NCBI GenBank assembly: GCA_041662625.1
Contig: JBAZSB010000001.1
Coordinates: forward strand, 1-49,571
Length of the DNA: 49,571 nucleotides
Source: Patescibacteria group bacterium
GTDB lineage: Bacteria > Patescibacteriota > Patescibacteriia > Buchananbacterales > UBA6539
Reading direction: 5' to 3'
Position 1 is the stretch's first letter, and each line of letters begins with the position of its first letter. Made by a program: the position numbers and the translations under genes. Below, piece by piece: positions 6,017 through 46,452 of the stretch. The notes beneath the pieces were generated by a model. The model ran no database searches. It saw only the letters and a list, made by a program, of their open reading frames with translations, and had not been told where the DNA came from.

Positions 6017-6058
6017 ATAAAAAAAATTACGCCGAGTCAACCTTGCGGTTATCTCGGC
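6017..6058 (-). terminator. Rho-independent terminator of GC-rich cassette A
   Basis: Minus strand reads gccgagataaccgcaaggttgactcggc, then gtaa, then T8. It is preceded by three further GC hairpins (6063-6075, 6090-6109, 6125-6141). Confidence 0.6.
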
Positions 6059-6146
6059 GCATCCCCTTAACGGGGCACAGTGTGCATTCAGGGTCTCCTC
6101 CTAGACCCTAACTTGTTTTCCTTCGCCACGCCGGCCGTGGCTTACC

Positions 6147-7322
6147 TTACTCGGTGTCCGCGCTTTCGGCGTCGCCCAGAACCGCTTCCAACAAGTCGCG
6201 CATTCCACTGATTTGTGGCGCGCGGTACTCATCGAGGTAGCGTCGCAGGACCGCTGCCAACTCCGGCGAAAGGATTAGCGCACCTTCCTCCAGGGCGGCG
6301 TTGACCACACTCGGGTTGGCCAAGACCTTTTCGACTAAGGTCTGGCTTCCCAAAGCGGCCGTGACGAATTCCGGTTTGGCCAAGGCAGCCGTCACGAATC
6401 CCTGAAGTTTCAGGGCGTCCGCGACGAATTCCCGTTGGGCTAAGGCGGCCTCGACGAATTCCCGTTGGGCCAGGGCTTTCTCGACGAACGACTTGTTGGC
6501 CAATGCCGTGCAGAAGACGCAGTCTTCGGTCCTCTTTACGCGCAGGATTTGCCACTGGTTGTGGAGAAACAACACAATGGCTTGGCCATTCTTGACCGCG
6601 CCCAGCAGCATATCGTCGACGGCGTCGACCGCCCGCCCCCTGGCCGCTTCAATCATGTCGACCAACAGTGGGGCCTGGGCCTTGAGTCTGTCGAGGGCAT
6701 TGCTCTTGCCATCAACTTCCTTTGCCAGCGAGTCGATGGCCTGTTGCCGGTCAGCCAGCAGTTTGCCTTGGCCTTGATCGTGGAGAGCGACTCGGGTGCC
6801 CTTGGCAGTTTGCAGGTAATACTGTCCCTTGCTCCCCTCGGTTTCGCCGCTGCTGAAGATGACTCGGACGCCATCCTTTACTGCCGTGGCGAGCTGGCCG
6901 CCCTCGAGTTGGGAGAGGTCGAATGCCAGCTCCGTCCGCTTCCGCGCCAGCTCCGTTTTCAAGCCCGGGACTTCTTCTTCCAGTGAGTCCAACGCGCCTT
7001 GATCGCGGTCCCGCCGCTTCTCGTACGTGAGGACATCCTCAAGCAGGCCCTGTACGTCCGCGTCCACCTGGTCTGCCGTGATAGGTTCAAGGCTTTCGAT
7101 TGTCCGGACCGCTTCGTCCGGGGTTCCTACGGGAATGATCTGGACCCGGCTAAGGCCCGGTTGCCCGAGCAGCAATTCTGCCCGGTTGGCATGTGCCTCG
7201 TTCCAGACCTGTCGGCCGAGCTGGAGCACCTCGAGGATGTGTTGCTGCTCCTCTTGGGTGCCCATGACGGCTATTTTCGCGATCCTTCCTCCGCTTCCGC
7301 TGTTTCCTTCCTGACTTGTCAT
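6147..7322 (-). CDS. GC-rich hypothetical protein (391 aa) with a C-terminal decapeptide-repeat array
   Basis: Long ORF in a GC-rich block. Start chosen at the internal ATG (MTSQEGNS...) preceded by aaaggga. The listed GTG start at 7406 lies in AT-rich leader. No family recognised. Confidence 0.6.
   Translation of the reverse strand: MTSQEGNSGSGGRIAKIAVMGTQEEQQHILEVLQLGRQVWNEAHANRAELLLGQPGLSRVQIIPVGTPDEAVRTIESLEPITADQVDADVQGLLEDVLTYEKRRDRDQGALDSLEEEVPGLKTELARKRTELAFDLSQLEGGQLATAVKDGVRVIFSSGETEGSKGQYYLQTAKGTRVALHDQGQGKLLADRQQAIDSLAKEVDGKSNALDRLKAQAPLLVDMIEAARGRAVDAVDDMLLGAVKNGQAIVLFLHNQWQILRVKRTEDCVFCTALANKSFVEKALAQREFVEAALAQREFVADALKLQGFVTAALAKPEFVTAALGSQTLVEKVLANPSVVNAALEEGALILSPELAAVLRRYLDEYRAPQISGMRDLLEAVLGDAESADTE
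6282..6506 (-). repeat. 7.5 tandem 30-bp repeats encoding ALAxxEFVxA decapeptides
   Basis: Protein reads ALANKSFVEK ALAQREFVEA ALAQREFVAD ALKLQGFVTA ALAKPEFVTA ALGSQTLVEK VLANPSVVNA ALEEG. The DNA units gacgaattcccgttgggc... recur. Confidence 0.75.
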
Positions 7323-7417
7323 ACTGTGTCCCTTTCTGTTCTGTTTCCTTCTGCCAAACTTCACACAAAATGTGAGCACTGTACAAGACGTTGTGTTTTT
7401 AGACACAACATCGATTT

Positions 7418-7446
7418 ATCTTGGCATAATTATTGTGAATTGTCAA
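7418..7446 (-). promoter_or_regulatory. Putative sigma70-type promoter of cassette A
   Basis: Minus strand TTGACA-attcacaataattatgc(17)-CAAGAT. Confidence 0.4.
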
Positions 7447-7469
7447 TGATTATAAAAATATGTTATAAT
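7440..7469 (+). promoter_or_regulatory. Orphan + strand promoter (candidate sRNA start)
   Basis: TTGTCA (7440-7445), 18-nt spacer, TATAAT (7464-7469). No CDS follows before the hairpin/T7 at 7521-7582. Confidence 0.4.
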
Positions 7470-7654
7470 ATAGATTGTCAGCGGTCTTTAAGGCTGGTGA
7501 TAACTAAGCTATTTATTTATGCCTAAAGGTAAAAATGGGACCAAGTTGTTTTTGAAATTTTTACTTTAATTAGGCTTTTTTTATACCTAAAATTTTAATT
7601 TAGAGGTTTGGTGCGGGGCGAGATTTAAAGCAGATTTAGATATTATTGTTAAAT

Positions 7655-7762
7655 ATGGATAATAAAAATAAAAAGATATTAATTATTGAAGATGACCCCA
7701 TCACCAAGCCCACGATTAACTATTTAGAGATATTTAAATCTAATCCGCGCGGAGTCGCCTAG
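7655..7762 (+). pseudogene. Duplicated 5' fragment of the response-regulator gene
   Basis: MDNKNKKILIIEDDP... parallels the start of the intact gene (..KKILIIEDDK) and then runs into unrelated sequence and a stop. The upstream box ttggtgcggggcgaga is repeated as ttggtgaggggcgaga at 7801-7816. Confidence 0.45.
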
Positions 7763-7844
7763 CGGCTTAGGATTGTTTAAAGATTAGTTCGATATTCGGC
7801 TTGGTGAGGGGCGAGAAGAGTGTATTAATTATATTTAAAGAAAT

Positions 7845-8231
7845 ATGGGTTCCAATCCGACCAAAAAGATTCTTATTATTGAAGATGATAAATTCCTGGC
7901 TAAGATGCTTGGCCGGATGCTTGAATCGCATAATTATGAAATTATCATGGCCAGCAACGGCAAAGAGGGACTAATTAAAGCTTCAAGTAATGATATTAAT
8001 TTAATTTTGCTGGATATGATGTTGCCCGATATTGCTGGTTTTGATTTATTGGAGACAATCAAAGGTGATGATAAGACAAAAAAAATTCCGGTTATTATTA
8101 TTTCTAATTTGGGCCAGCCGGAAGATATGCAGCAGGGGCGACGGTTGGGAGCAATTGATTATTTAGTGAAAAGTAATATGAGTCTTGATGAGGTGGTGGC
8201 AAAAGTTAGAAAATATTTACCTGTAACATAA
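7845..8231 (+). CDS. Single-domain response regulator (CheY-like receiver)
   Basis: 128 aa with IIEDD ... LLDMMLPD ... receiver motifs and no output domain. Confidence 0.85.
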   Translation: MGSNPTKKILIIEDDKFLAKMLGRMLESHNYEIIMASNGKEGLIKASSNDINLILLDMMLPDIAGFDLLETIKGDDKTKKIPVIIISNLGQPEDMQQGRRLGAIDYLVKSNMSLDEVVAKVRKYLPVT

Positions 8232-8264
8232 TACTAATCATAAATTAGCATTATATTTATGAAT

Positions 8265-31741: not shown

Positions 31742-31742
31742 T

Positions 31743-32920: not shown

Positions 32921-32939
32921 CGTGTCTGTTCTCCTCTCA

Positions 32940-33893: not shown

Positions 33894-33964
33894 AGGTGTT
33901 CTCCTTGTTGCTACGTTGTCCATTCCAACCAATCAACCAGATTCTAACAAAACCACAGTGGTTA

Positions 33965-33993
33965 ATCTTATTATATATTTTTTCTTAAGTCAA
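33965..33993 (-). promoter_or_regulatory. Putative promoter of the SDR-PfkB operon
   Basis: Minus strand TTGACT-taagaaaaaatatataa(17)-TAAGAT. Confidence 0.5.
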
Positions 33994-36959: not shown

Positions 36960-37787
36960 ATGTTGATTGATTCTCACGCTCATCTAAATTTTGAAGATTT
37001 TGCTAATGACTGGCAAACAGTGATTGCAGATTGTCAAAAAAAAGGTGTTTGGCTGATCAACGTTGGTTCGCAGCTTGGCACCAGCCGAAAAGCCATAGCA
37101 ATCGCTAACCAGTATGAAAAGGGAGTTTATGCGGCTTGCGGTCTTCATCCGATTCATGTTTCGGGCAGCACTTTTCACCCCGAAGCTTTCAATATTGATG
37201 AATATCGGAGTTTAATTAAGAGTTCAAAAAAAGTTGTAGCCCTTGGTGAAACCGGACTTGATTTTTTTCATTCAGACAAAAATATTGAAAATCAAAAAAA
37301 AGTTTTTGCCAAACATTTGAATTTAGCTCAAGAGTTTGGTTTGCCCGTAATTGTTCATGCCCGGAATAGTCAGGATGGGAGAAAAGATGCTTATGAAGAG
37401 ATTTTGAAAGTGCTCAGAGCTCCGAGCTCAGAGCTCCGAGCTCAGGGCACTGAGCTTAAAGGAGTGATTCATTGCTTCGGCGGTACATTGGAACAAGCCA
37501 AGGCATTTTTAGACCTTGGTTTTTATATTGGCTTTACCGGAGTGATTACCTTTCCGAAGACGGAAAATTTGGCCGTAGTCGTGAAATCTTTGCCCCTAAA
37601 TAAAATTTTGGTGGAAACCGACAGTCCCTATTTAGCCCCCTCTCCTTACCGCGGCCAGCGCAACCGGCCGGAATATGTCGAATTGGTAGCCCGGGAAATT
37701 GCTAAAATTAGAGGCTTAGAGTATAATGAAATTGAAAACCAAACTTTCAAAAACGCAATTAAATTATTTACCCCGTTAGAAATATAA
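36960..37787 (+). CDS. tatD: TatD-family metal-dependent hydrolase
   Basis: IDSHAHL, GETGLDF and VETDSPYL motifs. Carries an in-frame GC-rich 14-nt x3 repeat insertion at 37413-37454. Confidence 0.9.
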   Translation: MLIDSHAHLNFEDFANDWQTVIADCQKKGVWLINVGSQLGTSRKAIAIANQYEKGVYAACGLHPIHVSGSTFHPEAFNIDEYRSLIKSSKKVVALGETGLDFFHSDKNIENQKKVFAKHLNLAQEFGLPVIVHARNSQDGRKDAYEEILKVLRAPSSELRAQGTELKGVIHCFGGTLEQAKAFLDLGFYIGFTGVITFPKTENLAVVVKSLPLNKILVETDSPYLAPSPYRGQRNRPEYVELVAREIAKIRGLEYNEIENQTFKNAIKLFTPLEI

Positions 37788-37884: not shown

Positions 37885-38004
37885 ATGCCTCATCTGGATG
37901 ATGATTGCCCTTGCGGTTCGGGTAAGCCCTATGGCGAATGTTGTGGGGCGGCCGAACCATGCGACTGCGGATCAGGCAAACCGGCTGGCGAGTGCTGTTA
38001 CTAG
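37885..38004 (+). CDS. 39-aa mini-protein made of two SEC-C-like metal-binding motifs (not in the ORF track)
   Basis: MPHLDDDCPCGSGKPYGECCGAAEPCDCGSGKPAGECCY*. GC-rich codons in an AT-rich context. No convincing SD. Confidence 0.5.
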   Translation: MPHLDDDCPCGSGKPYGECCGAAEPCDCGSGKPAGECCY

Positions 38005-38122: not shown

Positions 38123-38151
38123 TTGACAAATATTTTTAATTATTATTAAAT
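38123..38151 (+). promoter_or_regulatory. Putative promoter of the zinc-ribbon mini-operon
   Basis: TTGACA-aatatttttaattatta(17)-TTAAAT. Confidence 0.45.
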
Positions 38152-38189
38152 TACAGTTAGGTTAGTGTTTAACAGGTGGAGGAAAAACC

Positions 38190-38342
38190 ATGCCAAACCG
38201 AGAAACACTGGAACAGCAGGCGGCAATTCGGCGGTCTACTGATCAGCAGTCTGCTGTCTGTCGGGCGTGCGGCCAACTATGCGGCGGCAACTCCGAGAAG
38301 AATCCTCATACGCCGTGCCCTCTGTGCGGTCACAGGAGTTAA
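38190..38342 (+). CDS. 50-aa zinc-ribbon-like protein (not in the ORF track)
   Basis: ATG behind aggtggagga. Sequence ...CRACGQLCGG...CPLCGH. Preferred over the overlapping listed frame 38176..38373. Confidence 0.5.
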   Translation: MPNRETLEQQAAIRRSTDQQSAVCRACGQLCGGNSEKNPHTPCPLCGHRS

Positions 38343-38378
38343 GAAGGATTCAAACCCCATTGAGGGGAGGTGAAAGAA

Positions 38379-38612
38379 TTGGGAGAAGACGGCATTAATG
38401 CTGTTTTGGCGAATGCCAAGCCAGGCGCTTCGGTCCGGGTTGGCCGGAAAGGTTTGCAAGGCGGTGAAGTAGTTACCACCTTGAAGATCAATTCGATCGT
38501 CCGTGACGAAGGTGGCGACCCGGCAATCGTCAAACTTGAAGGAGGAGGTGTGCTCTTCATCGTCGGTGAGACCTGGTATTTCAGCGACCAGCCCGTCAGT
38601 TTGGTCGAGTGA
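38379..38612 (+). CDS. GC-rich hypothetical protein (~77 aa)
   Basis: TTG start 6 nt after ggaggtg (alternative GTG at 38370). Follows the zinc-ribbon ORF by 36 nt. Confidence 0.5.
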   Translation: MGEDGINAVLANAKPGASVRVGRKGLQGGEVVTTLKINSIVRDEGGDPAIVKLEGGGVLFIVGETWYFSDQPVSLVE

Positions 38613-38636
38613 CAATACCGGGTGTTGTCCAGTTTA

Positions 38637-38674
38637 AGCGGGTAGGCCTTGATTGGCTTATCCCGTCTTTTTTT
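38637..38674 (+). terminator. Terminator of the zinc-ribbon mini-operon
   Basis: gcgggtaggcc...ggcttatcccgtc imperfect hairpin followed by T7. Confidence 0.55.
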
Positions 38675-38797: not shown

Positions 38798-40837
38798 ATG
38801 TTTCTGCTAGTAATTGTAATCAGCCTCTTGTCGTTGGTGGTTGCCTATCTTTTAGCTCAGCAAATTTTAAAGAAAGATCAAGGTAGCCCTCAGATGCAAG
38901 AGATCGCGGCGGCCATTAAAGAAGGAGCGATGGCTTTTTTAAAACGGCAATATGGGACAATTACAACTTTGTCCCTCGTTTTAGCTTTGTTAATTTTTGC
39001 CATTTACGCTTTTTCCGGCAAATTTTCTTATGGCTGGCACACCGGCTTAGCCTTTTTATTAGGGGCGGCTTGTTCCGCTATTTCCGGCTACGTCGGCATG
39101 TATATTTCGGTCCGAGCCAATTTACGGACAGCGGCCGCTGTGGGCAAAAGCCTGAATGAGGCGTTGAAAATCTCTTTGCGTGGCGGTGCGGTTTCAGGTT
39201 TTTTGGTTGTAGCTTTATCACTTTTGGGTGTGGCCGGACTTTTTTATTTATTTGGCGGCCTGAAAAATCCGATGGAAGCGCCGCTTCTAATGGTTGGTTT
39301 TGGTTTTGGCGCTTCGTTTGTCGCGCTCTTTGCCCAGCTGGGCGGCGGAATTTATACCAAAGCCGCTGATGTCGGCGCGGACTTGGTCGGTAAAGTGGAA
39401 GCCGGCATTCCCGAAGATGACCCGAGAAATCCGGCCGTGATCGCTGATTTAGTCGGCGATAACGTCGGTGACTGTGCTGGCCGTGGTGCCGATTTGTTTG
39501 AATCAACAGCGGCGGAAAATATCGGGGCAATGATTTTAGGCATTGCTTTATTTCCCGTTTTTGGAATTAATGGTATTATTTTTCCCCTCGTTGCCCGGGC
39601 TTTCGGTTTAGTCGCTTCGGTTATCGGCGTGATGTCGGTAAAAATCAAAGAAGATGAAGACCCGATGAAAGGTTTAAACCGAGGTTATTTTTTAACTACG
39701 ATTTTGGCTACTTTAGGTTTTGCTTTGGCTTCTTATCTTTTGTTAACCCAATTTTGGGTCTGGTTTTTTCTGGCCGGTTTCGTTGGTATTTTGACTAGTG
39801 TTGCCTTTGTTTATATCACTCAATATTACACGGAATACAAATATCGGCCGGTTAAAGAAATTGCCAAGGCATCCGAAACTGGTGCGGCAACTAACATCAT
39901 CAGCGGGTTTGCGGTTGGTTTGGAAAGTACCGGTCTGCCGGTTTTGGTGATTTCCGCCGCCTTACTGGGCGCTTACTTTCTGGGCAAATTTTCCGGTGTG
40001 CCAGATGGCGGTTTGTATGGGACAGCGATGGCGACCATGGGCATGTTGGCGACTTGCGCTTTTATTTTAGCGATGGATACTTTTGGTCCGATCACTGATA
40101 ATGCCGGCGGCATTGTTGAAATGTCCAAATCTCCCGAAGAAGTTCGGAAAAAAACTGATCGCTTGGATTCAGTGGGCAATACCACCAAAGCTTTGACCAA
40201 AGGTTATGCGGTTGGCTCGGCAGCCTTGGCGGCATTCTTACTTTTTTCTGCCTATCTGCAGGAAGTTAAATTAGAAAGTATTGACTTGGCTAAACCGGTA
40301 GTATTTGTCGGCGGTTTAATTGGTGCGGGGTTGATTTTCTTCTTTTCCGCTTTGGCCATTCGGGCAGTGGGCCGGGCAGCTTACTATATTATTAATGATG
40401 TCCGGGCGCAGTTCAAAGAAAAGCCGGGGATTATGGCCGGGACGGAAAAACCAGATTATGCCCGGTCAGTTGATATCTGCACCCGCGGTGCTTTAAAGGA
40501 AATGATTTTACCAGGCTTAACTGCCATAATTGTGCCAACCGCGGTGGGGATTTTGCTGGGTGTTGAAGCAGTCGGCGCGACTTTGATGGTTGGTACCATT
40601 GTTGGTATCGTCATGGCTTTACTTTTGAATAATGGTGGTGGCGCCTGGGATAACGCCAAAAAATACATTGAGACCGGCGCTTATGGCGGCAAAGGTTCAG
40701 CCACTCATAAAGCAGCGGTGGTTGGTGATACGGTCGGCGATCCATTCAAAGACACGGCTGGTCCGTCACTTCATGTGTTGATTAAATTACTTTCGACTCT
40801 TACCTTAGTATTAGCTTCGTTATTCTTGATGTTCTAA
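38798..40837 (+). CDS. hppA: Membrane-integral ion-translocating pyrophosphatase
   Basis: 679 aa, polytopic. GGIYTKAADVGADLVGK, DNVGDCAGRGADLFES, DNAGGI and GDTVGDPFKDT motifs. Confidence 0.95.
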   Translation: MFLLVIVISLLSLVVAYLLAQQILKKDQGSPQMQEIAAAIKEGAMAFLKRQYGTITTLSLVLALLIFAIYAFSGKFSYGWHTGLAFLLGAACSAISGYVGMYISVRANLRTAAAVGKSLNEALKISLRGGAVSGFLVVALSLLGVAGLFYLFGGLKNPMEAPLLMVGFGFGASFVALFAQLGGGIYTKAADVGADLVGKVEAGIPEDDPRNPAVIADLVGDNVGDCAGRGADLFESTAAENIGAMILGIALFPVFGINGIIFPLVARAFGLVASVIGVMSVKIKEDEDPMKGLNRGYFLTTILATLGFALASYLLLTQFWVWFFLAGFVGILTSVAFVYITQYYTEYKYRPVKEIAKASETGAATNIISGFAVGLESTGLPVLVISAALLGAYFLGKFSGVPDGGLYGTAMATMGMLATCAFILAMDTFGPITDNAGGIVEMSKSPEEVRKKTDRLDSVGNTTKALTKGYAVGSAALAAFLLFSAYLQEVKLESIDLAKPVVFVGGLIGAGLIFFFSALAIRAVGRAAYYIINDVRAQFKEKPGIMAGTEKPDYARSVDICTRGALKEMILPGLTAIIVPTAVGILLGVEAVGATLMVGTIVGIVMALLLNNGGGAWDNAKKYIETGAYGGKGSATHKAAVVGDTVGDPFKDTAGPSLHVLIKLLSTLTLVLASLFLMF

Positions 40838-40927: not shown

Positions 40928-40956
40928 TTGACTTTGGCCCTTATAATCATTAAGAT
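40928..40956 (+). promoter_or_regulatory. Putative promoter of the PRT/OMPdc-like operon
   Basis: TTGACT-ttggcccttataatcat(17)-TAAGAT, followed by a ~190-nt leader. Confidence 0.5.
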
Positions 40957-41155
40957 ATAAGCAAGAAAGTGGAGGGGCGTTCCTTTCACTGTTTTTTGAT
41001 GAACCCTTTGACATTCGACAACTTGACAGCCCGTGCTGTCAAACCGGTGCCAAGGAGTGTTGTGGACTCGTCGTCTGCCCAGTGGGCGGACCCCATGATG
41101 GTCGTCAAAAGAAACGACACCAACGGCCATAGAGGCCAAGGTAAAGGAGACGAGT

Positions 41156-41911
41156 ATGAATGCAGGAAGAATCTTGACGTTAGGTGAAGTCAGCAAACGA
41201 TTGGGTCCGCGAGGAGCAATCCTTACCAATGACCACATCGTGCTGACGCCGAAACCCCAAGGGCATTTCCATGCCCGGGGGTATTTTGCCAAGGACGCAG
41301 TTCTGTCCGATGCAGCCAGCGCGCTGGCCATTGCCGATGAAATTGCGGCCCGCTTTGAAAACGATGGCATCCAAGCCGTCGTTGGACCGACCGTTGCTGG
41401 TGTCAGTATTGCGGCCTTAGTGGCAACGCAGCTTTATCTGCGAACCGGTGATGACACCATCAACTGGGGCTATGCCGAAGAAACCGAGGACGAAATCGAG
41501 GTGTGTCGTGTTATCGACGACGTGCTCCAGGACAGGCGCGAGAAGCTGCTTTTGCCCAACAAGGCGATCCGCGTGATCCGGCGTGGTCTGCCCGCGTACT
41601 TCAATGGCATGCGAACGCTGGTGGTTGAGGATGTTTTCTCAAGCGGCGGGTCGGCCAAAGTCACGATGATTGCGGCCGAGCAGGTCGGGGCCATCATCGT
41701 TGGTATGGCCGTCATCTGCAACCGCAGTGGGCTGACGGCGACCGATTTCGGCGTGCCGAAACTGGAAGTACTGTTCAACATTCCGATGGAAATGTTTCCG
41801 GAGGAAACCTGTCAGTTGTGTGCTGACTTGGTGCCGATCAACATGACGGTTGGGCATGGGGCGAAGTTCTTCGCCCGCTGTCCCGACAGCAAAGTGCCGA
41901 GGAAAGAGTAG
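41156..41911 (+). CDS. Type I phosphoribosyltransferase (orotate PRTase-like), GC-rich
   Basis: 251 aa with PRPP-binding loop TLVVEDVFSSGGS. SD aaaggaga. Confidence 0.75.
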   Translation: MNAGRILTLGEVSKRLGPRGAILTNDHIVLTPKPQGHFHARGYFAKDAVLSDAASALAIADEIAARFENDGIQAVVGPTVAGVSIAALVATQLYLRTGDDTINWGYAEETEDEIEVCRVIDDVLQDRREKLLLPNKAIRVIRRGLPAYFNGMRTLVVEDVFSSGGSAKVTMIAAEQVGAIIVGMAVICNRSGLTATDFGVPKLEVLFNIPMEMFPEETCQLCADLVPINMTVGHGAKFFARCPDSKVPRKE

Positions 41912-41956
41912 AGGAAGGGGAAACGATCCCCACAACGAATAGAGGAGAAGATCAGA

Positions 41957-43150
41957 ATGACATACGACAGGACACAGAATGCAGGCGTACGCCTGCTGAA
42001 AGCGCAGAAAGCGCAGCGAACCAACCTGTGTGTTGGGTTGGACGTGCACATTACTCCCAAGGTCGGGCTCGGTGCGGACTTTTATCATCAGTTCGCCAAG
42101 CCCGATACGCAAGAACAGTTTCGGCAGATACTCGCGCTGGCGGCGAATTTCGGGTTAGCAGTCCCTTCACCGTCCGGAGACTCGCAGGAAAAGTTACTCT
42201 CCGGCATCATGGAGTACTTCCTGCAGATCATCCGTTTCTCGTTCAAGCACCAGATCTTTGTCTACAAGCCGCAGGCCTCGTTCTACGATCGCCTTGGCTT
42301 CGCGGGCAGCTTGATTCTGCACCGGCTTGGGCGGGAAATTCACGAGCAAGGCCAAGCTCTTGGCGTGCCGTACTTCGCGGGTTTGGATAAGAAATGCGGC
42401 GACATCATGACTACCCAGGAGCCATTCTATGAGGCTTTCCTGAACGGTCTGGGTGAAGAAAGCGTCCCTGGTTTGCCCGGTCAATACGGGTTCGATACAA
42501 TGACGATCACGACCTACATGGGTCGGGAAGTCATTGAACCCGGTCTGGCCTGGTACAAGAACGGCAAGGGCGCGATCGTGGTCACCCTTTCGAGCAATCC
42601 GTCCGGCACGGAGATACAGGACGCATTGGCAACCCCGAATCCGGGCCGCCAGCTCACGGAAAAGCAGGAACCGTATCGGTTATCGGCCGAAACCGTTGCT
42701 TCCATCGAACAGAAGCTTGGCCGGCCGCCAACTGTCGCGGAACTGATGCTTGACATCACCGAGCGGGTCAGTGCGACCAGTGGTATCAACGATGCGGCAA
42801 CTGGCATCAGCCCGTTGTTCAGCGTTGTGGGCAGCACGGTCAAAGAGCCAGGTGCTTTCCGCTTATTGCGGCCGCGCGGTATCGCATTGGTGCCGGCTTT
42901 CGGCGCTCAGGGTGGCAAATTCGCCTACATGATGCCGATACTTGCGCATGACGACGACGAAGAAATGGCGGGCCAGGGTGCGATCTGCTCCTCGTCGCGA
43001 GGCCATGACTTCGCATTTCAGCCGGAAAACGGCGGTGACGGCAATCCGCTGAATATCGAGGGCAACCTTGTCCGCGCCATTGAGGCGTTTCGTCACAGCG
43101 AGAAGGCAGCTTACGAAGAGGTTCACATCCACTACCCGTATGCTGCCTAG
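41957..43150 (+). CDS. Orotidine-5'-phosphate decarboxylase-family protein, unusually long (397 aa), GC-rich
   Basis: NLCVGLDVH and LDKKCGDIMTT resemble the type 2 OMPdc Asp/Lys motifs. Starts 45 nt after the PRT gene with SD agaggaga. Confidence 0.65.
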   Translation: MTYDRTQNAGVRLLKAQKAQRTNLCVGLDVHITPKVGLGADFYHQFAKPDTQEQFRQILALAANFGLAVPSPSGDSQEKLLSGIMEYFLQIIRFSFKHQIFVYKPQASFYDRLGFAGSLILHRLGREIHEQGQALGVPYFAGLDKKCGDIMTTQEPFYEAFLNGLGEESVPGLPGQYGFDTMTITTYMGREVIEPGLAWYKNGKGAIVVTLSSNPSGTEIQDALATPNPGRQLTEKQEPYRLSAETVASIEQKLGRPPTVAELMLDITERVSATSGINDAATGISPLFSVVGSTVKEPGAFRLLRPRGIALVPAFGAQGGKFAYMMPILAHDDDEEMAGQGAICSSSRGHDFAFQPENGGDGNPLNIEGNLVRAIEAFRHSEKAAYEEVHIHYPYAA

Positions 43151-43192
43151 TCAGGCGGCTACACAACCGGAGGGAAACTAACGTAAGTAAAC

Positions 43193-43239
43193 AACCCCGT
43201 TTGGTATTCAAGGAGGAAGCCAGACGGGGCTCTTTTTTT
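43193..43239 (+). terminator. Terminator of the PRT/OMPdc-like operon
   Basis: ccccgt...acgggg stem followed by ctcttttttt. Confidence 0.7.
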
Positions 43240-43246
43240 ACATGAC

Positions 43247-43288
43247 GCGAATTACGCGAATGTATTCGTTTAATTCGCTCCTATTCGT
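43247..43288. promoter_or_regulatory. Operator-like palindrome built from GCGAAT/ATTCG units
   Basis: GCGAATTACGCGAAT-gt-ATTCGTTTAATTCGC (43247-43278) plus a third ATTCGT at 43283-43288, about 20 nt upstream of the -35. Confidence 0.45.
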
Positions 43289-43306
43289 GTAATTTGCATA
43301 AAGCCG

Positions 43307-43335
43307 TTGACAAAACCCCAAGCCTAATGTTAAGT
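43307..43335 (+). promoter_or_regulatory. Putative promoter of the 192-aa ORF
   Basis: TTGACA-aaaccccaagcctaatg(17)-TTAAGT. Confidence 0.45.
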
Positions 43336-43386
43336 TGAAATGCTCAAATGAACTGATGATGTACGGATGACAATAGGAGGAATACT

Positions 43387-43965
43387 ATGGCCAGACCAAC
43401 ACCAGACCAGGTGGCTTTTCTGCAAAGCCACGGCCTTGAGCCACCAAGAAGCGTTTGGAACTGTAAGCCAAACAAGTGGCTTTGTCAGCATCTTATTGCC
43501 TACTTCAAGCAAGGAAACGGTGCTACCCAAAAAGGAGCCGCCGAAACGCTAGAGGATCGGGTCGAGCTCTATGAAGCGGCTTTGCTGGAGTTTTTGCACT
43601 TGATCGTTGTACCAATAGTGCTTAAACCCAGGGGTATCCTTGTCGATGAAACCAATGGTCCGCTTGAGGTTTTAGGAATCGATCCTAAGTCACCGGGGTA
43701 CGTGGCCCGCCAGAAACAAGAAGCAAAGGAGGGTGATCCCGCAATCAGTCCATTCCACGTCACCATTGTGCCGGCCAATACCTTGATTAAAGAAGGGAAC
43801 GTCTACGGGGGAGACCTGGAAGACTACTGTGTTGCACCGCAGGGAATTATGACTGAAGGCCATTCGTTTTATCGTTTCGGCCAGGGGAGGGTTCATATTC
43901 CGGGCGAACCGGCTGAGCCGGTCAATTTCTTTCGACTGCTGGAGTTCGATGCTGGTCTGCTCTAA
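43387..43965 (+). CDS. GC-rich hypothetical protein, 192 aa
   Basis: SD aggagga 6 nt upstream of the ATG. Clean single long frame. No family recognised. Confidence 0.6.
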   Translation: MARPTPDQVAFLQSHGLEPPRSVWNCKPNKWLCQHLIAYFKQGNGATQKGAAETLEDRVELYEAALLEFLHLIVVPIVLKPRGILVDETNGPLEVLGIDPKSPGYVARQKQEAKEGDPAISPFHVTIVPANTLIKEGNVYGGDLEDYCVAPQGIMTEGHSFYRFGQGRVHIPGEPAEPVNFFRLLEFDAGLL

Positions 43966-43966
43966 T

Positions 43967-44026
43967 CCGCTTTCGGAACTTCGATGTTAGCTAATGACAT
44001 TCGAGGATCCGGGGGCGGTCTTTTTT
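43967..44026 (+). terminator. Long-hairpin terminator (ccgctttcggaact ... ggcggtctttttt)
   Basis: Its 5' arm and 3' end are nearly identical to the terminator at 46013-46054. Confidence 0.65.
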
Positions 44027-44071
44027 AATCCGATGCTAATAATGCCCGCTACGACTCGCGTAGCGAGGCGA

Positions 44072-44137
44072 GCGAATAGTATGCGAATGTTGCTAATAGC
44101 CATTCGTATCATTCGCATGTCATTTGTAGATTCGCAT
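44072..44137. promoter_or_regulatory. Array of GCGAAT x2 / ATTCG x3 units plus ATTTGTAGATT
   Basis: gcgaat 44072 and 44083; attcgt 44102; attcgc 44111 and 44130. ATGCGAAT and ATTCGCAT are inverted. atttgtagatt at 44122-44132. Confidence 0.4.
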
Positions 44138-44144
44138 CGCGGCA

Positions 44145-44173
44145 TTGACTTTTGCCATAATTTTCGCTAAATT
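44145..44173 (+). promoter_or_regulatory. Putative promoter of the ANL ligase gene
   Basis: TTGACT-tttgccataattttcgc(17)-TAAATT. Confidence 0.45.
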
Positions 44174-44248
44174 TGAGGCAGTTAGCGGAGGGAGTGTTCC
44201 TTCCAAGAGTCAACTGGTAAGCAACTAGATTAGGTTGGGAGACGAACA

Positions 44249-45985
44249 ATGATACGAGAATTGATCGGACCAGTCGAACAGAGAGGTGGTGTGCCTCAGA
44301 TAACTTTGGCTCACTACCTGAGCCTACCGCCGCCGTTGAGGATGCTCCATGGCATCGTCCACCATTGGGCTGAAGCTCAGCCGACGAAAACAGCCATCAT
44401 CAATGTCGCTTTTGATGAAAGCCGGCAGATGGTTGTCGAGGAAACGCCGTACGGATTGTTGGATATGCTGACCACGGCTTTAGCCTTTCGGCTGTATCAG
44501 TTGGGCTTGCGACCCGGCGATGTGTTTGCCGCTTGGCTGCCTTTCATCAAGGGGCATATCTTGTTGCAGTACGCCTGCAGCAAGATCGGGGTGATACACA
44601 TGCCTCTTGACCTGCGCTGGAAACCGGGGGAAGTCATTCGGATGTTGCAGCTTGTTGGCGCCAAGGGCTTTGCCTTTTTGGGTCAGACACCGAAAGGTGA
44701 TTTCCGGCCCGTGGCCGAGGCAGTCAAGCAGCAGTGTTCGAGCGTTGAATTCCTATTGCAGTTTTCGCCAGCGGGTCAAACGTTGGTGCCGGGCGCCTTT
44801 TCTGCCATGACAGTAGCGCTTGAAGCTATGCAGGCCTTCGGCGGGGCAACACCTGGTGAACTGCAGGAGTTCAATAGGGTTATGGCGGGTATTACGCCAG
44901 ACCATAGCGCTCAGATCATCTGCACGTCCGGCTCCACCGGTCTACCCAAGGCCGCGCTCTTACGCCATCGCAACGTCACCGCCCAAAACTTGTGCTTGGG
45001 CACGGCTTTTGGCATCGGACAAGATACTACGATGCTGGTCAACCTGCCTCCTTGGCATGTTGGCGGTGGAGCCGAGCAGTTGCTGACCACGCTGTTTTTC
45101 GGCGGCACTGCGGTCGTTCTGCGGTTGTTTGATTCCCAGTACCCAGAGGAAAGCCTCCAGGTCATCGAGCGCTTCAAGTGCACGATACTGGGAATGATCC
45201 CCACGATGTTGCGAATACTTTGGAAGTTGCCGGATTTCGATAAGTTCGACCTCAGCTCGCTTACGACGGCAATCTACGGCGGCGAACCGTTGTTTTCCGG
45301 CGAACCGGAAAAGCTGGCGGCTATGGCAGCAACGTGGGGTACCGGCTTGGGCCTAACTGAAATAGGCGGGTTTGGTAGCTACAATCTGACCGGTTCAATC
45401 GGCGATCTCGGCGTCGACATGCCGATTACGCCGCTTACAATCCGCGGCCCGATGGGTCCGGATGGCCAAGCTGGTGAAGTTTTGCCAAATGGGCAAGTAG
45501 GCGAAGTTTGCTTTGCCGGCCCGCAAGTCTTTGCCGGTTATATGGGCGACGAAGCAGCTACCCGGGCGACCGTTACTCCGGAAGGTATCTGTTACACCGG
45601 GGATCTTGGCTGCCTCGACAGCGAGTGTCGGTTGCACCTGACTGGCCGCAAGAAGAACGTGGCCAAAGTCAGTGGCAATCTATTTTCACTGGAAGAAGTG
45701 GAGCGGCATTTCAGTGCCTGCACCGGGGTTAACGTTTGTGTAGCGGTAACCTTGCCTCATCGCCAGACCACGGAAGGGGTAGTTCTGGTACTTGCCGGTG
45801 ATATCAGCGAGGAAACGCTGAATGATCATGCCTTGCAGATTGCCGCTTACAAGCGACCGGCGCTTTACGTCCGGGTTGATACGTTACCGGCCTTAGGGTC
45901 GGGCAAAGCCGATCGCCCAGCGATCCGAGACATCGCTCGGAAAGCTGCCGGCCAACACCTGGAGGACGGCTGGTTGCTTGACTGA
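44249..45985 (+). CDS. AMP-forming acyl/aryl-CoA ligase (ANL superfamily), GC-rich
   Basis: 578 aa with ICTSGSTGLPKAAL (A3 core), YGGE, GDLG...GRKK and a terminal GKADR motif. Confidence 0.85.
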   Translation: MIRELIGPVEQRGGVPQITLAHYLSLPPPLRMLHGIVHHWAEAQPTKTAIINVAFDESRQMVVEETPYGLLDMLTTALAFRLYQLGLRPGDVFAAWLPFIKGHILLQYACSKIGVIHMPLDLRWKPGEVIRMLQLVGAKGFAFLGQTPKGDFRPVAEAVKQQCSSVEFLLQFSPAGQTLVPGAFSAMTVALEAMQAFGGATPGELQEFNRVMAGITPDHSAQIICTSGSTGLPKAALLRHRNVTAQNLCLGTAFGIGQDTTMLVNLPPWHVGGGAEQLLTTLFFGGTAVVLRLFDSQYPEESLQVIERFKCTILGMIPTMLRILWKLPDFDKFDLSSLTTAIYGGEPLFSGEPEKLAAMAATWGTGLGLTEIGGFGSYNLTGSIGDLGVDMPITPLTIRGPMGPDGQAGEVLPNGQVGEVCFAGPQVFAGYMGDEAATRATVTPEGICYTGDLGCLDSECRLHLTGRKKNVAKVSGNLFSLEEVERHFSACTGVNVCVAVTLPHRQTTEGVVLVLAGDISEETLNDHALQIAAYKRPALYVRVDTLPALGSGKADRPAIRDIARKAAGQHLEDGWLLD

Positions 45986-46012
45986 TCTTTGGATCAACTC
46001 GATATTTTCAAT

Positions 46013-46054
46013 GCCGCTTTCGGAACTAGAGGAACCGAAGGCGGTCTTTTTTTT
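46013..46054 (+). terminator. Terminator (gccgctttcgg...ccgaaggcggt plus T8)
   Basis: Good stem followed by tctttttttt. Shares its arms with 43967-44026. Confidence 0.75.
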
Positions 46055-46059
46055 AGTAT

Positions 46060-46124
46060 CCGAATAGCACACTACGAATGCGCACATCCGAATGCTATTT
46101 GTAGATTTGGATAGATTTGTAGAT
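46060..46124. promoter_or_regulatory. CGAAT x3 and tandem ATTTGTAGATT x2 upstream of the last cassette
   Basis: ccgaat 46060, acgaat 46074, ccgaat 46088. atttgtagatt at 46097-46107 and 46114-46124. Confidence 0.4.
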
Positions 46125-46139
46125 TGGGATTATATTCCC

Positions 46140-46167
46140 TTGACATTTTCTGTAAATTTGCTATGCT
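46140..46167 (+). promoter_or_regulatory. Putative promoter of the 46-aa ORF
   Basis: TTGACA, 16 nt, TATGCT. Confidence 0.4.
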
Positions 46168-46241
46168 ATTTTGTTGTTTTGTTTAGGGAGTATATTGGAG
46201 GGATTTTTGGCGCAGTACTACCTAGGCGGAAGGATACCAAG

Positions 46242-46382
46242 ATGAAGAGATCGGGGACATTGCGGAAGGTAGTAGACAATCTGGGCACAATCATCATGCA
46301 TGGAATGTTGCTTATAGCAGTTGTTGCTCTGATTGTCGCCATCATCTTGCCGGCGGTAGTTCGGATGTGGCCTCTCCCGTAG
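46242..46382 (+). CDS. 46-aa single-pass membrane peptide
   Basis: MKRSGTLRKVVDNLGTIIMHGMLLIAVVALIVAIILPAVVRMWPLP*. ggaagga lies 7 nt upstream of the ATG. The longer listed form (46092) translates the promoter region. Confidence 0.45.
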   Translation: MKRSGTLRKVVDNLGTIIMHGMLLIAVVALIVAIILPAVVRMWPLP

Positions 46383-46417
46383 AGGCAGTTCCGACCAGTT
46401 GGCAGATAGTAAAGGCA

Positions 46418-46452
46418 CGGGCCGGTTCAGGTGGACTGGCTCGTTTTTCTTT
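46418..46452 (+). terminator. Terminator after the 46-aa ORF
   Basis: cgggccggt-tcaggtgg-actggctcg (with G-U pairs) followed by tttttcttt. Confidence 0.55.

Follow-up and report, generated by a model that had tools for sequence, protein, structure and literature searches.

GC-rich transcription units between AT-rich core genes of a Patescibacteria genome: candidates for a clade-restricted flexible gene pool

In a 49,571-nucleotide stretch of a Patescibacteria genome, hereafter the window, GC-rich genes are set among AT-rich core genes. At a probability of about one half, we read the GC-rich blocks as accessory genes of a clade-restricted flexible pool, turned over by homologous recombination. 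Each block would be an insulated transcription unit composed of a sigma-70-type promoter, a leader, a strong SD site, one or more GC-rich ORFs and an intrinsic terminator, with leaders that often begin with an SD-like 5′ hairpin. The units would lie mainly in two flexible hotspots bounded by conserved AT-rich core genes (uvrC/rsmI and tatD/uvrD helicase), and their GC-rich codon and amino-acid usage would be the signature of a pool that the lineage has in common with GC-richer relatives in the clade or has obtained from them. Gain, loss and replacement would proceed by homologous recombination of taken-up DNA, with breakpoints both in the core genes on either side and within conserved junction modules (terminator, spacer, promoter and leader), and no dedicated mobile element would be involved.

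Composition and layout of the units

The window has an overall GC content of 44%; the blocks singled out in an earlier note on this DNA reach 50–58%, and the stretches between them 38–45%. That note counted about eleven GC-rich blocks, which holds overall, but 27532–28002 (0.41; ORF 0.46), 46140–46452 (0.47) and 43307–44026 (0.50) are weaker than claimed. GC3 of the 15 cassette ORFs, carried in 12 promoter-to-terminator units (Table 1), ranges from 0.53 to 0.73 (per-ORF mean 0.63), and that of the 29 backbone ORFs from 0.29 to 0.47 (per-ORF mean 0.39), with no overlap (Mann-Whitney U = 435 = 15 × 29, p = 4e-8). Synonymous sites differ as well, with four-fold GC of 0.67 vs 0.51 and two-fold GC3 of 0.55 vs 0.26. 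These values bear out the proposed compositional discontinuity. GC1, GC2 and GC3 are all raised in cassette ORFs, whose products are enriched in P, G, A and R and depleted in K, I, N and Y. Every backbone ORF (29/29) lies on the plus strand, and 5 of the 12 units on the minus strand. Shadow ORFs in all frames, also pointed out earlier, are indeed present in the GC-rich blocks and are an expected by-product of the scarcity of stop codons in GC-rich DNA.

As a rarity control we took loci around metG from other genomes, 99 in number and each spanning 10 kb or more, and scored genes with a GC content more than 0.10 above the locus median. No such gene was found in 87 of the 99, and the mosaic pattern appeared only in the window (9/38 genes) and its closest relative, L084 (4/13).

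Blocks are edged by a −35 box of the form TTGAC[AT] on one side and an intrinsic terminator on the other. Promoters and 5′ UTRs are AT-rich (GC 0.25–0.43), with the exception of the unit at 40928 (0.50); the GC jump therefore falls at the SD site or start codon, and it ends at the terminator stem. The claim that composition switches there, leaving AT-rich regulatory DNA on the flanks, is thus upheld, and the predicted promoter and terminator of each unit support the view that the GC-rich stretches are discrete and separately transcribed. The 391-aa protein of Unit 1 had no match in Pfam, NCBIfam, PHROGs or PADLOC, and its exact sequence is already present in a public protein collection.

Several cassette mRNAs carry the hairpin motif GGAGGG-N4-TCCYTYC at what is predicted to be their 5′ end. 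Elements of the STAB-SD type are 5′ mRNA stabilisers of Gram-positive bacteria that consist of an SD-like sequence or a 5′ stem-loop, and the resemblance offers a lead only. Unlike such elements, the predicted Unit 9 hairpin has a U-run after it, which leaves an attenuator as an alternative reading.

Table 1. Positions of predicted units, inter-unit spacers and core flanks in the window
Feature	Position	Strand	Description
Unit 1	6017..7446	-	promoter TTGACA-N17-CAAGAT, -35 box at 7446; structured 3′ UTR of 130 nt with terminator at its end
Unit 1 ORF	6147-7322	-	391 aa; GC 0.61, GC3 0.73; 30-nt tandem repeats at 6355-6504
Unit 2	19683..20126	-	promoter, -35 box at 20126; SD GGAGGG; terminator 19683-19720
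Unit 2 ORF	19748-20047	-	putative, 99 aa; GC3 0.65
Unit 3	25552..25891	-	uvrA/uvrC gap; promoter TTGACA-N17-TAAGTT, -35 box at 25891; terminator 25560-25581
Unit 3 ORF	25613-25819	-	putative 68-aa predicted membrane peptide; GC3 0.72
Unit 4	27532..28002	-	promoter TTGACA-N17-TATTAT, -35 box at 28002; leader ~165 nt
Unit 4 ORF	27532-27807	-	putative, 91 aa; intermediate GC 0.46, GC3 0.53
Unit 5	29929..31745	+	promoter TTGACT-N17-TAAGAT, -35 box at 29929; leader 156 nt; terminator 31703-31734
Unit 5 ORF	30085-31662	+	FGGY-family sugar kinase, xylulokinase-like (below family cut-off); GC3 0.64
Unit 6	31746..33993	-	promoter TTGACT-N17-TAAGAT, -35 box at 33993
Unit 6 ORF	32940-33893	-	SDR oxidoreductase; GC3 0.60
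Unit 6 ORF	31817-32920	-	PfkB sugar kinase; GC3 0.66
Unit 7	37885..38004	+	39-aa Cys-rich peptide; two CxCGSGKPxGECC (SEC-C-like) motifs
Unit 8	38123..38674	+	promoter TTGACA, -35 box at 38123; two small putative ORFs 38190-38342, 38370-38612; terminator 38640-38663
Unit 9	40928..43239	+	promoter TTGACT-N17-TAAGAT, -35 box at 40928; 5′ hairpin GGAGGGGCGTTCCTTTC + U-run (40968-40997); terminator
Unit 9 leader	40990-41115	+	conserved, ~115 nt
Unit 9 ORF	41156-41911	+	PRTase-like
Unit 9 ORF	41957-43150	+	long OMP-decarboxylase-like (397 aa)
Spacer	43240..43306		imperfect palindrome GCGAATTACGCGAATG-T-ATTCGTTTAATTCGC
Unit 10	43307..44026	+	promoter TTGACA-N17-TAAGTT, -35 box at 43308; 192-aa ORF 43387-43965; shared-family terminator 43965-44027
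Spacer	44027..44144		inverted words ATGCGAAT...ATTCGCAT; also TTTGTAGATT
Unit 11	44145..46054	+	promoter TTGACT-N17-TAAATT, -35 box at 44145; 5′ hairpin GGAGGGAGTGTTCCTTCC; shared-family terminator 46012-46053
Unit 11 ORF	44249-45985	+	AMP-binding (acyl-CoA-synthetase-like)
Spacer	46055..46139		three CGAAT words (GTATCCGAATAGCACACTACGAATGCGCACATCCGAATGC); two copies of TTTGTAGATT
Unit 12	46140..46452	+	promoter TTGACA-N16-TATGCT, -35 box at 46140; terminator 46417-46444; overall GC intermediate
Unit 12 ORF	46242-46382	+	putative 46-aa predicted membrane peptide
uvrC	25902..27485	+	left core flank, hotspot 1 (uvrC/rsmI)
rsmI	34031..34696	+	right core flank, hotspot 1
tatD	36960..37787	+	left core flank, hotspot 2 (tatD/uvrD)
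hppA (H+-pyrophosphatase)	38798..40837	+	inside hotspot 2; backbone-type codon usage
uvrD/pcrA-type helicase	46564..49571	+	right core flank, hotspot 2; continues past window end; intein ~47440-48525

Hotspots, age and persistence of the GC excess

Most units cluster in the two hotspots, and hotspot content varies between relatives. The earlier note had placed the blocks in separate gaps rather than in islands; units do occupy several gaps, but the clustering at uvrC/rsmI and tatD/uvrD qualifies that description. In L084 the order is uvrC-M23-[AT3, GDSL]-[PfkB, SDR]-rsmI-metG-cvpA-tatD-[39-aa]-hppA-[237 aa, OMPdc][aminotransferase], where OMPdc stands for the OMP-decarboxylase-like gene. L167/L105 read uvrC-[257 aa][FGGY]-[AT3, GDSL]-rsmI...tatD-[562 aa][GFO]-uvrD; L170 reads uvrC-[FGGY]-...-tatD-hppA-[173 aa][HAD][249 aa, OMPdc]; L171 reads uvrC-MerR-[FGGY]-rsmI; and L173 reads V-ATPase-[PRT, OMPdc-like][153 aa]-uvrD. 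In L156, with a backbone of 58% GC, uvrA-uvrC-rsmI-metG follow one another with nothing between. Inside hotspot 2, hppA varies too, with no copy at the L167 locus and a V-ATPase operon in its place in L173.

FGGY, PfkB-SDR, the PRTase/OMP-decarboxylase-like pair and the 39-aa peptide occupy the same positions in as many as five diverged Patescibacteria lineages. The uvrC/rsmI gap holds FGGY in four lineages (the window, L167/L168/L105, L170 and L171/L172), PfkB-SDR is colinear in the window and L084, the PRTase/OMP-decarboxylase-like pair follows hppA or precedes uvrD in L084, L170 and L173, and the gene for the 39-aa peptide differs from its L084 counterpart at 10 synonymous and 0 non-synonymous positions, so that the two proteins are identical. 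Units 4 and 8 are not present at the equivalent sites in L084; among the relatives examined, the small putative ORFs of units 2, 3, 4, 8 and 12 have no homologs and Unit 1 has no counterpart.

The shared genes appear as diverged as their neighbours. Between lineages, pairwise amino-acid identity is 65–68% for FGGY, 61–67% for uvrC and 60–69% for tatD, and identity at FGGY four-fold sites is near saturation (residual 0.01–0.18); PfkB dS is 1.65 vs 1.7–2.3 for the backbone. By these comparisons, most of the GC-rich genes were already resident in an ancestor that several diverged lineages have in common. In each of the six lineages compared, cassette genes are GC-richer than the local backbone at synonymous sites, over clade backbones that span ~32% to ~60% GC.

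Pool membership alone does not account for a GC excess kept despite near-saturated synonymous divergence; if resident since the lineages split, FGGY and PfkB-SDR should have largely lost theirs, which nonetheless still amounts to +0.04 to +0.22 (four-fold sites) and +0.09 to +0.37 (two-fold sites). Vertical inheritance with GC-rich codon usage actively maintained, by codon or mRNA selection or by GC-biased gene conversion, would require no exchange with GC-rich lineages, and we regard it as possible, if rather unlikely. The offset recurs in six lineages with backbone GC3 from ~0.25 to 0.6, FGGY GC3 follows that of the backbone approximately, at a constant distance above it (0.54/0.26, 0.51/0.38, 0.61/0.40 and 0.75/0.57), the near-saturation of synonymous sites argues against leftover donor composition, and the excess is limited to coding sequence between AT-rich UTRs. 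However, the codon shift (CGG, ACG, CCG and CTG up) looks like general GC-rich usage rather than a translational-optimum set, and amino-acid composition is also shifted. The accessory genes AT3 and GDSL, which share hotspot 1 in L084 and L167, are AT-rich; location alone therefore does not set composition, which is hard to reconcile with regional biased gene conversion.

Junction modules and signs of recombination

The Unit 9 leader (40992–41113) is 88% identical to that of L084 over 122 nt (94% in an 80-nt core) and the terminator 77%, and the PRTase and OMPdc 3′ of this leader are only 27–28% identical. hppA is 98.7% identical to L084 in amino acids and 88% in nucleotides vs ~73% for its neighbours, with a dS of 0.68 vs ~2. 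The spacer, promoter and 5′ hairpin of Unit 11 (44080–44205) are 78% identical to L173 positions 11800–11923, upstream of an unrelated ORF, and the spacer at 46055–46139 recurs 3′ of terminators that close other cassettes, twice in L081 and also in L167. Differing cassettes in L081, L082, L173 and the window end in terminators of one family, of which 2.07 Mb of other loci are essentially free, and a contig of L081 joins the AMP-binding unit of the window to the aminotransferase unit of L084. As far as sequence comparison goes, the hppA dS, the exchange of coding sequence between the Unit 9 leader and terminator, the reused modules and the L081 join fit homologous recombination. Opportunity for exchange is suggested by the type IV pilus operon in the window and by the co-occurrence of three lineages in one sample (JGI 3300029288). 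For aquifer Patescibacteria, one study reports that 83.2% of the gene transfers it detected had both partners within the Patescibacteria, and it assigns as much as 13% of genome length to HGT (PMC12455944).

The same junctions might instead belong to an undescribed system dedicated to shuffling cassettes, which would resemble an integron except that each cassette drives its own expression. Its recombination site would be the module itself (terminator hairpin, CGAAT/ATTCG-word spacer, promoter and 5′ hairpin), and its recombinase would be encoded elsewhere. We hold this to be unlikely. The same modules do stand beside unrelated ORFs within and between genomes, the three array spacers hold 7 of the 26 GCGAAT/ATTCGC copies of the window in 270 nt (an enrichment of ~50-fold), the palindromic spacers take the place that attC has in integrons, at the 3′ end of the cassette, and coding sequences are exchanged exactly between conserved leader and conserved terminator. 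Yet neither the window nor the related loci examined yielded a recombinase, unit junctions carry no attC core sites (R''/R' pairs), and no target-site duplications or flanking direct repeats were detected. The modules are moreover confined to the tatD/uvrD array, with none at units 1–8, and could equally reflect common descent, local duplication with ordinary homologous recombination, or the operator of a shared regulator.

Origin of the genes and relation to known systems

The best MetG relatives among genome representatives are from Patescibacteria (at most 61% identity), which fits a small-genome CPR bacterium as the carrier of the window; the earlier note had thought of an epibiotic small-genome bacterium. 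It had also suggested a donor of high GC, for example the cell on which such an epibiont lives. Searches bearing on the donor covered two families, FGGY and the long (397-aa) OMP-decarboxylase-like protein; both have close relatives only in Patescibacteria-like contigs, and matches then fall to 25–30% identity. At the level of sequence similarity, the searches show the GC-rich genes to belong to families apparently confined to the Patescibacteria clade, and a high-GC host as donor is left unsupported. Relatives of the AMP-binding protein at 73–74% likewise occur only on contigs built the same way, and the next matches reach at most 48%. Cassette codon usage correlates at ~0.8 with that of any GC-rich genome and singles out no donor.

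Repeated recent capture from such a donor, with composition not yet ameliorated, strikes us as very unlikely. The joint shift of all three codon positions is what genes evolved in a GC-rich genome would display; units 1, 2, 3, 4, 8 and 12, without counterparts in the relatives examined, could therefore be recent; and the AMP-binding protein has non-CPR bacteria as its next-best named relatives (42–48%). But the large units are syntenic in relatives despite saturated synonymous divergence, those relatives carry FGGY, PfkB-SDR and the PRTase/OMPdc pair, GC-richer throughout, the closest homologs of the two searched families are Patescibacteria-like only, and promoters, SD sites and terminators are in the recipient clade's own style, conserved across its lineages. 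For units 5, 6, 7, 9 and 11 recent high-GC capture is largely refuted.

Independent ENA and Logan assemblies match window positions 21648–32197 and 25329–35388 at 99.88% and 99.83%, together reproducing 13.7 kb, colinear over the blocks at 25.5, 27.5 and 29.9–34.0 kb, and the Unit 3 junctions are reproduced in assemblies L165 and L166. An assembly chimera or engineered construct, raised earlier and suggested by nothing except the sharpness of the boundaries, can be set aside, given three independent assemblies concordant over junctions, the same architecture in at least five other lineages (JGI, ENA, Logan and NCBI data), no plasmid similarity, and negligible phage similarity (two matches of ~60 nt each).

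Our preferred reading, a flexible pool turned over by homologous recombination, has its nearest parallel in flexible chromosomal islands of the replacement or additive kind, which are integration hotspots that keep constant core genes at their borders and have no mobility genes. As in those islands, the same core flanks hold different accessory genes across relatives, the units have atypical composition and are free of integrase, tRNA and direct repeats, and signs of homologous recombination lie in and beside a window hotspot. Unlike them, many units consist of one gene that brings a promoter, 5′ hairpin and terminator of its own, several units are long-standing and syntenic rather than strain-specific, and conserved junction modules recur beside unrelated ORFs. 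The polarity is also reversed: core genomes generally exceed accessory genomes in coding GC (PMC5303225), and accessory genes of the window are GC-richer than the core.

Scans for classical mobility hallmarks were negative: no tRNA genes in the window, no Rfam families, and no integrase or transposase domains in the cassette products scanned. Together with the repeat scan, this agrees with the earlier statement that integrase, transposase, tRNA and target-site duplication are lacking. With classical genomic islands, integrative elements and prophages the units share blocks of atypical composition with metabolic accessory genes; they have no integrase or transposase, tRNA target, direct repeats, phage or conjugation genes, and no relatives on viral contigs. 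CALINs are attC clusters without an integrase. Like these and integron arrays, the window has compact tandem cassettes in an order that varies across genomes, with an imperfect palindrome 3′ of each; unlike them, it lacks IntI and attC core pairs at junctions, a promoter and a terminator belong to each unit, units point in both directions, and units also stand singly between core genes. The aquifer study, in the portion drawn on here, identifies islands and transfers by composition and phylogeny and likewise finds metabolic functions added to streamlined genomes; clade-wide two-class codon usage, persistence at fixed hotspots and reusable regulatory junction modules are not described in that portion (PMC12455944).

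The mosaic is real, and most of its units are old, lineage-specific residents of hotspots, neither fresh captures nor assembly errors.

Composition and anatomy of the GC-rich units

The window has an overall GC content of 44%. Most of the GC-rich blocks proposed in an earlier note, made from the sequence alone, reach 50-58% GC against 38-45% in their surroundings, while three are weaker than stated there (27532-28002, GC 0.41; 46140-46452, 0.47; 43307-44026, 0.50). GC3 ranged from 0.53 to 0.73 in 15 cassette ORFs, which form 12 transcription units, and from 0.29 to 0.47 in 29 backbone ORFs, with zero overlap (Mann-Whitney p = 4e-8). The compositional discontinuity was likewise evident at strictly synonymous sites, where cassette and backbone differed both at four-fold positions (GC 0.67 versus 0.51) and at two-fold positions (GC3 0.55 versus 0.26), and amino-acid usage was shifted in the cassette ORFs as well. 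Cassette codons resemble those of a generally GC-rich genome, with TTC, TAC, ATC, CTG, CCG, CGG and ACG raised and TTA lowered. In 87 of 99 control loci, each spanning at least 10 kb around metG in other genomes, no gene exceeded the locus median GC by more than 0.10; a mosaic was present at only two of 99 metG loci, the window (9 of 38 genes) and its nearest relative, L084 (4 of 13). The compositional feature is real, reproducible and unusual.

The block edges described earlier coincide with -35 boxes (TTGAC[AT]) and intrinsic terminators. Apart from unit 7, the units each show a -35/-10 match; an SD sequence is present in all 12, and most end in a terminator of their own. GC is low in the promoters and 5' UTRs (0.25-0.43, with one exception), and the jump in GC is therefore located at the SD/start codon. 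The + strand carries all 29 backbone ORFs, and the cumulative GC skew climbs along the entire window; the genes on the - strand are without exception GC-rich units, and 5 of the 12 units are on the strand opposite to the rest. The backbone comprises glpX, fba, an ABC exporter, a ribF-like gene, EamA, a response regulator, a type IV pilus operon, DJ-1, uvrB, DUF559, uvrA, uvrC, an M23 peptidase, rsmI, metG, cvpA, tatD, hppA and uvrD. The blocks are protein-coding, with Pfam domains or conserved homologs. Rfam gave no family in the window at gathering score and nothing meaningful at E <= 1, ARAGORN found no tRNA or tmRNA there, and the idea that the blocks are GC-rich RNA genes (rRNA, tRNA, introns) was rejected. 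Gene products and other elements are collected in the table.

Positions of unit genes and of other sequence elements in the window
Feature	Position	Product or content
Unit 1	6147-7322	391-aa protein without any family match
Tandem repeats in the unit 1 orphan ORF	6355-6504	4-5 repeats of 30 nt, giving the 10-residue repeat ALAxxEFVxA
Units 2, 3, 4, 7, 8, 12		several ORFs of 39-99 aa
Unit 5	30085-31662	FGGY sugar kinase
Unit 6	32940-33893, 31817-32920	SDR oxidoreductase, PfkB kinase
Unit 7 peptide	37885-38004	39 aa, two CxCGSGKPxGECC (SEC-C-like metal-binding) motifs
Unit 9	41156-41911, 41957-43150	PRTase-like protein, long (397-aa) OMP-decarboxylase-like protein
Leader of unit 9	40990-41115 (L084 12238-12356)	~115 nt, 5' of the PRTase/OMP-decarboxylase-like genes
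Unit 10	43387-43965	192-aa protein without any family match
Unit 11	44249-45985	AMP-binding (acyl-CoA-synthetase-like) enzyme
hppA	38798-40837	backbone gene
Backbone terminator hairpins	5947-6011, 40840-40923	related, AT-rich (AAGAAATCAAAAAATCAA...); close eamA and hppA, exactly abutting units 1 and 9
5' mRNA hairpins	40968-40990, 44187-44204	GGAGGG-N4-TCCYTYC
Heptamer run	25510-25545	GTAGG-containing (AGTAGGA AGTAGGT TGTAGGT TGTAGGC GGTAGGA), directly past the uvrA stop codon and adjoining the unit 3 terminator
+ strand promoter	19550-19680	near-consensus TTGACT-N18-TATAAT
Intergenic repeats	4826-4970, 10128-10270, 14879-15028, 36834-36960	AT-rich, internally palindromic, ~130 nt, 60-81% identical, both orientations; REP/MITE-like
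Repeats just 5' of the uvrD start	46470-46555	direct and inverted copies of AGCGATAAAG/CTTTATCGCT
Intein	47440-48525	~362 aa (C...HN before S; Pfam Intein_splicing and Hint), between GDDDQ and SIYKFRGA of that motif in a uvrD/pcrA-type helicase; ortholog in the related locus L173 without intein

The 39-aa peptide of unit 7 is the same protein in L084 despite 10 synonymous differences, and is therefore under strong purifying selection. The + strand promoter has no + strand ORF downstream and is directed into the 3' end of unit 2, which is on the - strand; its product could be a small or antisense RNA.

An assembly or engineering artefact, one of the possibilities first raised, was rejected for the main blocks. 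Two independent contigs run colinear through units 3-6: ENA contig ERZ27249449 matches 21648-32197 of the window at 99.88%, and Logan contig SRR18595301 matches 25329-35388 at 99.83%. Comparable architecture was found in other lineages in data from JGI, ENA, Logan and NCBI.

Residents of hotspots shared with relatives

The host was placed in Patescibacteria by the best relatives of its MetG, which is at most 61% identical to that of any genome representative. Genome and metagenome scans with MetG returned no relative above 65% over the full length, a pattern-based scan missed L084, and exact look-up of the window's MetG and AMP-binding proteins returned no record. Cluster members, together with homologs of hppA, FGGY and the OMP-decarboxylase-like protein, led to the syntenic relatives.

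Gene order in the related loci
Locus	Gene order
L084	uvrC-M23-[AT3, GDSL]-[PfkB, SDR]-rsmI-metG-cvpA-tatD-[39-aa]-hppA-[237 aa, OMPdc][aminotransferase]
L167/L105	uvrC-[257 aa][FGGY]-[AT3, GDSL]-rsmI...tatD-[562 aa][GFO]-uvrD
L170	uvrC-[FGGY]...rsmI...tatD-hppA-[173 aa][HAD][249 aa, OMPdc]
L171	uvrC-MerR-[FGGY]-rsmI
L173	V-ATPase operon-[PRT, OMPdc-like][153 aa]-uvrD
L156	uvrA-uvrC-rsmI-metG, directly adjacent; backbone 58% GC

Across the window and these loci the same core pairs, uvrC/rsmI and tatD/uvrD, enclose differing accessory content, which makes these two intervals flexible hotspots. Several of the cassettes have long resided there. Pairwise identity of FGGY is 65-68% and star-like, equal to that of uvrC (61-67%) and tatD (60-69%), and dS of PfkB against L084 is 1.65, with backbone genes at 1.7-2.3. 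Repeated recent capture, which the earlier note had considered, does not hold for the main blocks: the large blocks are syntenic in relatives, and by this comparison are ancestral rather than inserted.

The FGGY, long OMP-decarboxylase-like and AMP-binding families are confined to the clade. For FGGY, four relatives lie at 51-69%, of which one is named as Patescibacteria, before identity drops to 30%; roughly 35 members at 32-63% make up the long OMP-decarboxylase-like family, with canonical pyrF next at 25-28%; and the AMP-binding protein has relatives at 73-74% on like-built contigs only, then none above 48%. With close relatives confined to a Patescibacteria-like clade, the suggestion of a high-GC host as donor is unsupported. 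Codon usage could not name a donor, as it correlated at 0.77-0.84 with every GC-rich locus. In six of six lineages, cassette genes exceed their own backbone in GC, by 0.04 to 0.22 at four-fold sites and by 0.09 to 0.37 at two-fold sites.

The N-terminal half of MetG in L156 (Ga0209541_10049728) is 83% identical to that of the window, with UvrC and RsmI at just 53-57%; MetG of L167 is only 58% identical to the window's. From these values, even metG appears to have passed between members of the clade.

Possible recombination tracts and junction modules

Several comparisons suggest recombination tracts in or beside the hotspots. HppA is 98.7% identical to its L084 counterpart in amino acids and 88% in nucleotides (dS 0.68), whereas its neighbours are at about 73% in nucleotides (dS ~2) and the core neighbours' proteins at 71-87%. 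So close a match suggests that hppA was recently replaced between lineages. Its slot is empty in L167 and is taken by a V-type ATPase operon in L173. As a GC-rich cassette hppA was rejected; its synonymous usage is of the backbone type and its higher GC is due to amino-acid composition. In the comparison with the diverged lineage L084, hppA, cvpA and SDR have dS of 0.68-0.92 against 1.7-2.3 for their neighbours. A single sample, JGI 3300029288, holds three of the lineages, and the type IV pilus operon in the window is a plausible route of DNA uptake.

The edges of units are shared between different contents. In unit 9, the leader (40992-41113) shares 88% identity with L084 across 122 nt, with an 80-nt core at 94%, and the terminator is 77% identical, while the PRTase and OMP-decarboxylase-like proteins between them are at 27-28%. 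In unit 11, the segment 44080-44205, which covers spacer, promoter and 5' hairpin, is 78% identical to L173 11800-11923, there upstream of an unrelated 153-aa ORF. L081, a contig with related cassettes, joins the window's AMP-binding unit to the aminotransferase unit of L084 (77% amino-acid identity). A distinctive terminator, CCGCTTTCGG...CCGAAGGCGGTCTTTTTTT, ends different cassettes in the window (twice), L081 (twice), L173 (twice) and a further contig with related cassettes, L082; its covariance model gave one 24-bit match in 2.07 Mb of other loci. Downstream of these terminators lies a spacer of CGAAT/ATTCG words, conserved among the window, L081 and L167, and GCGAAT/ATTCGC is enriched about 50-fold in the three spacers of the tatD/uvrD array.

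The hairpin GGAGGG-N4-TCCYTYC occurs at the predicted start of many cassette mRNAs, including leaders in L081, L082, L084, L167, L170 and L173. It pairs an SD-like with an anti-SD-like sequence, is followed in unit 9 by a U-run, and could be a 5' mRNA stabiliser or attenuator.

The unit 9 leader is kept between two lineages though the downstream proteins have diverged. The two sequences compared differ by a compensatory stem change (GACAGC/GCTGTC versus GAAAGC/GCTTTC), the folding z-score is -3.2 for the window copy and -1.0 for the L084 copy, and the leader has no Rfam match. A peptide reading was set aside, since the differences from L084 are non-synonymous and, in the stem, compensatory, and the start codon is missing in L084. 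An RNA element is the more likely reading, and the leader is a candidate for a new cis-regulatory RNA or riboswitch for nucleotide metabolism.

Known systems and the origin of the GC excess

A phage, plasmid or vector origin was rejected: three cassette proteins had no relatives in IMG/VR, the window had no plasmid match, and its GenBank phage matches were negligible (two of 60 nt). PHROGs and PADLOC searches for phage and defence families in the cassette products gave no matches except one marginal 46-aa match. The earlier note's report that integrases, transposases, tRNAs and target-site duplications are absent was confirmed by domain, tRNA and repeat searches of the window. The scanned cassette products contained no integrase or transposase domains, no direct repeats or target-site duplications bracket the blocks, and the only repeats shared among block edges are the AT-rich hairpin terminators of backbone genes beside units 1 and 9.

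The units do not qualify as an integron, a CALIN, a classical island or a prophage. Integrons require the IntI tyrosine recombinase beside the array, and CALINs do not. No IntI/recombinase domain was found in the scanned cassette products of the window or in the called genes of related loci. A core-motif search of the window (R'' RYYYAAC, R' GTTRRRY) revealed no attC cores at the junctions, including the cassette 3' ends where they stand in integrons and CALINs; core pairs occurred at two loci, both within ORFs, fewer than in shuffles (9.6 +/- 4.2). Cassettes of integrons and CALINs are promoterless and co-oriented under a common Pc, whereas these units, apart from unit 7, have promoter matches of their own and lie on both strands. 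The integrase or transposase, tRNA/tmRNA target and flanking direct repeats of a classical genomic island or integrative element were not found in the window, nor were the structural and replication genes or viral-contig relatives expected of a prophage.

The closest kind is an HGT hotspot, or flexible genomic island, without mobility genes, with which the units share the same core flanks around different content, atypical composition and the lack of mobile-element genes. Horizontal transfer among Patescibacteria is known in general (PMC12455944). The units differ from a usual hotspot in four respects. Polarity is reversed, in that core coding GC normally exceeds accessory GC (PMC5303225) and here the accessory genes are GC-richer than the core; each single-gene unit is insulated by a promoter and a terminator of its own; the pattern holds throughout the clade; and regulatory junction modules are reused.

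Passive amelioration of donor DNA is an unlikely source of the GC excess of FGGY. As NG86 dS is too harsh an amelioration clock, the argument was redone with four-fold-site identity and F81-type decay. Four-fold-site identity of FGGY between lineages is near saturation (residual 0.01-0.18), with a per-lineage decay factor of at most 0.43. If FGGY and PfkB-SDR descended vertically, a donor-derived excess should therefore have dropped far below half its starting value, yet the observed excess is still large. For FGGY and PfkB, passive amelioration would have to start from an implausibly extreme ancestor; for SDR it could conceivably hold. Otherwise, either exchange with GC-richer members of the clade continues, or synonymous sites of the cassettes have another equilibrium, set by selection or by GC-biased gene conversion; AT3 and GDSL, AT-rich though in the same hotspot, speak against a purely regional process.

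Most likely, these observations reflect an ordinary process in unusual form, in which a flexible gene pool would turn over within hotspots. A dedicated cassette mechanism is a minority possibility. In a related reading, which we consider improbable, the tatD/uvrD arrays would be a plug-and-play system with the junction module as a portable recombination substrate for self-expressed GC-rich cassettes. The putative module would consist of a long terminator hairpin (CCGCTTTCGG...CCGAAGGCGG-T7), the CGAAT/ATTCG-word spacer, a TTGACT promoter and the 5' GGAGGG...TCCTTCC hairpin, and cassettes might move into, replace one another in, and change order in these arrays, inside one genome or from one genome to another, by homologous recombination or by a putative recombinase. 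Such a system would be integron-like in function and different in mechanism, and, if real, would explain how a GC-rich pool stays distinct from AT-rich core genomes.

The arrangement bears on how CPR/Patescibacteria, with tiny genomes and dependence on partners, gain metabolic functions. Add-on genes (sugar kinases, an SDR, a PRTase/OMP-decarboxylase-like pair, an acyl-CoA-synthetase-like enzyme) make up about a quarter of this 50-kb stretch. They sit in a few fixed hotspots, every one of these genes has separate expression signals, and mobile-element machinery is absent. Accessory genes GC-richer than the core are the reverse of the usual bacterial polarity, and a GC excess that lasts across lineages with nearly saturated synonymous sites is not what standard amelioration predicts. 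Reusable regulatory junctions and the conserved leader RNA offer concrete experimental handles. If the excess reflects continual exchange within a clade spanning 32-60% GC, it would mean a structured private gene pool; if it reflects selection or biased gene conversion, the clade would be a clean natural test case for the determinants of GC content.
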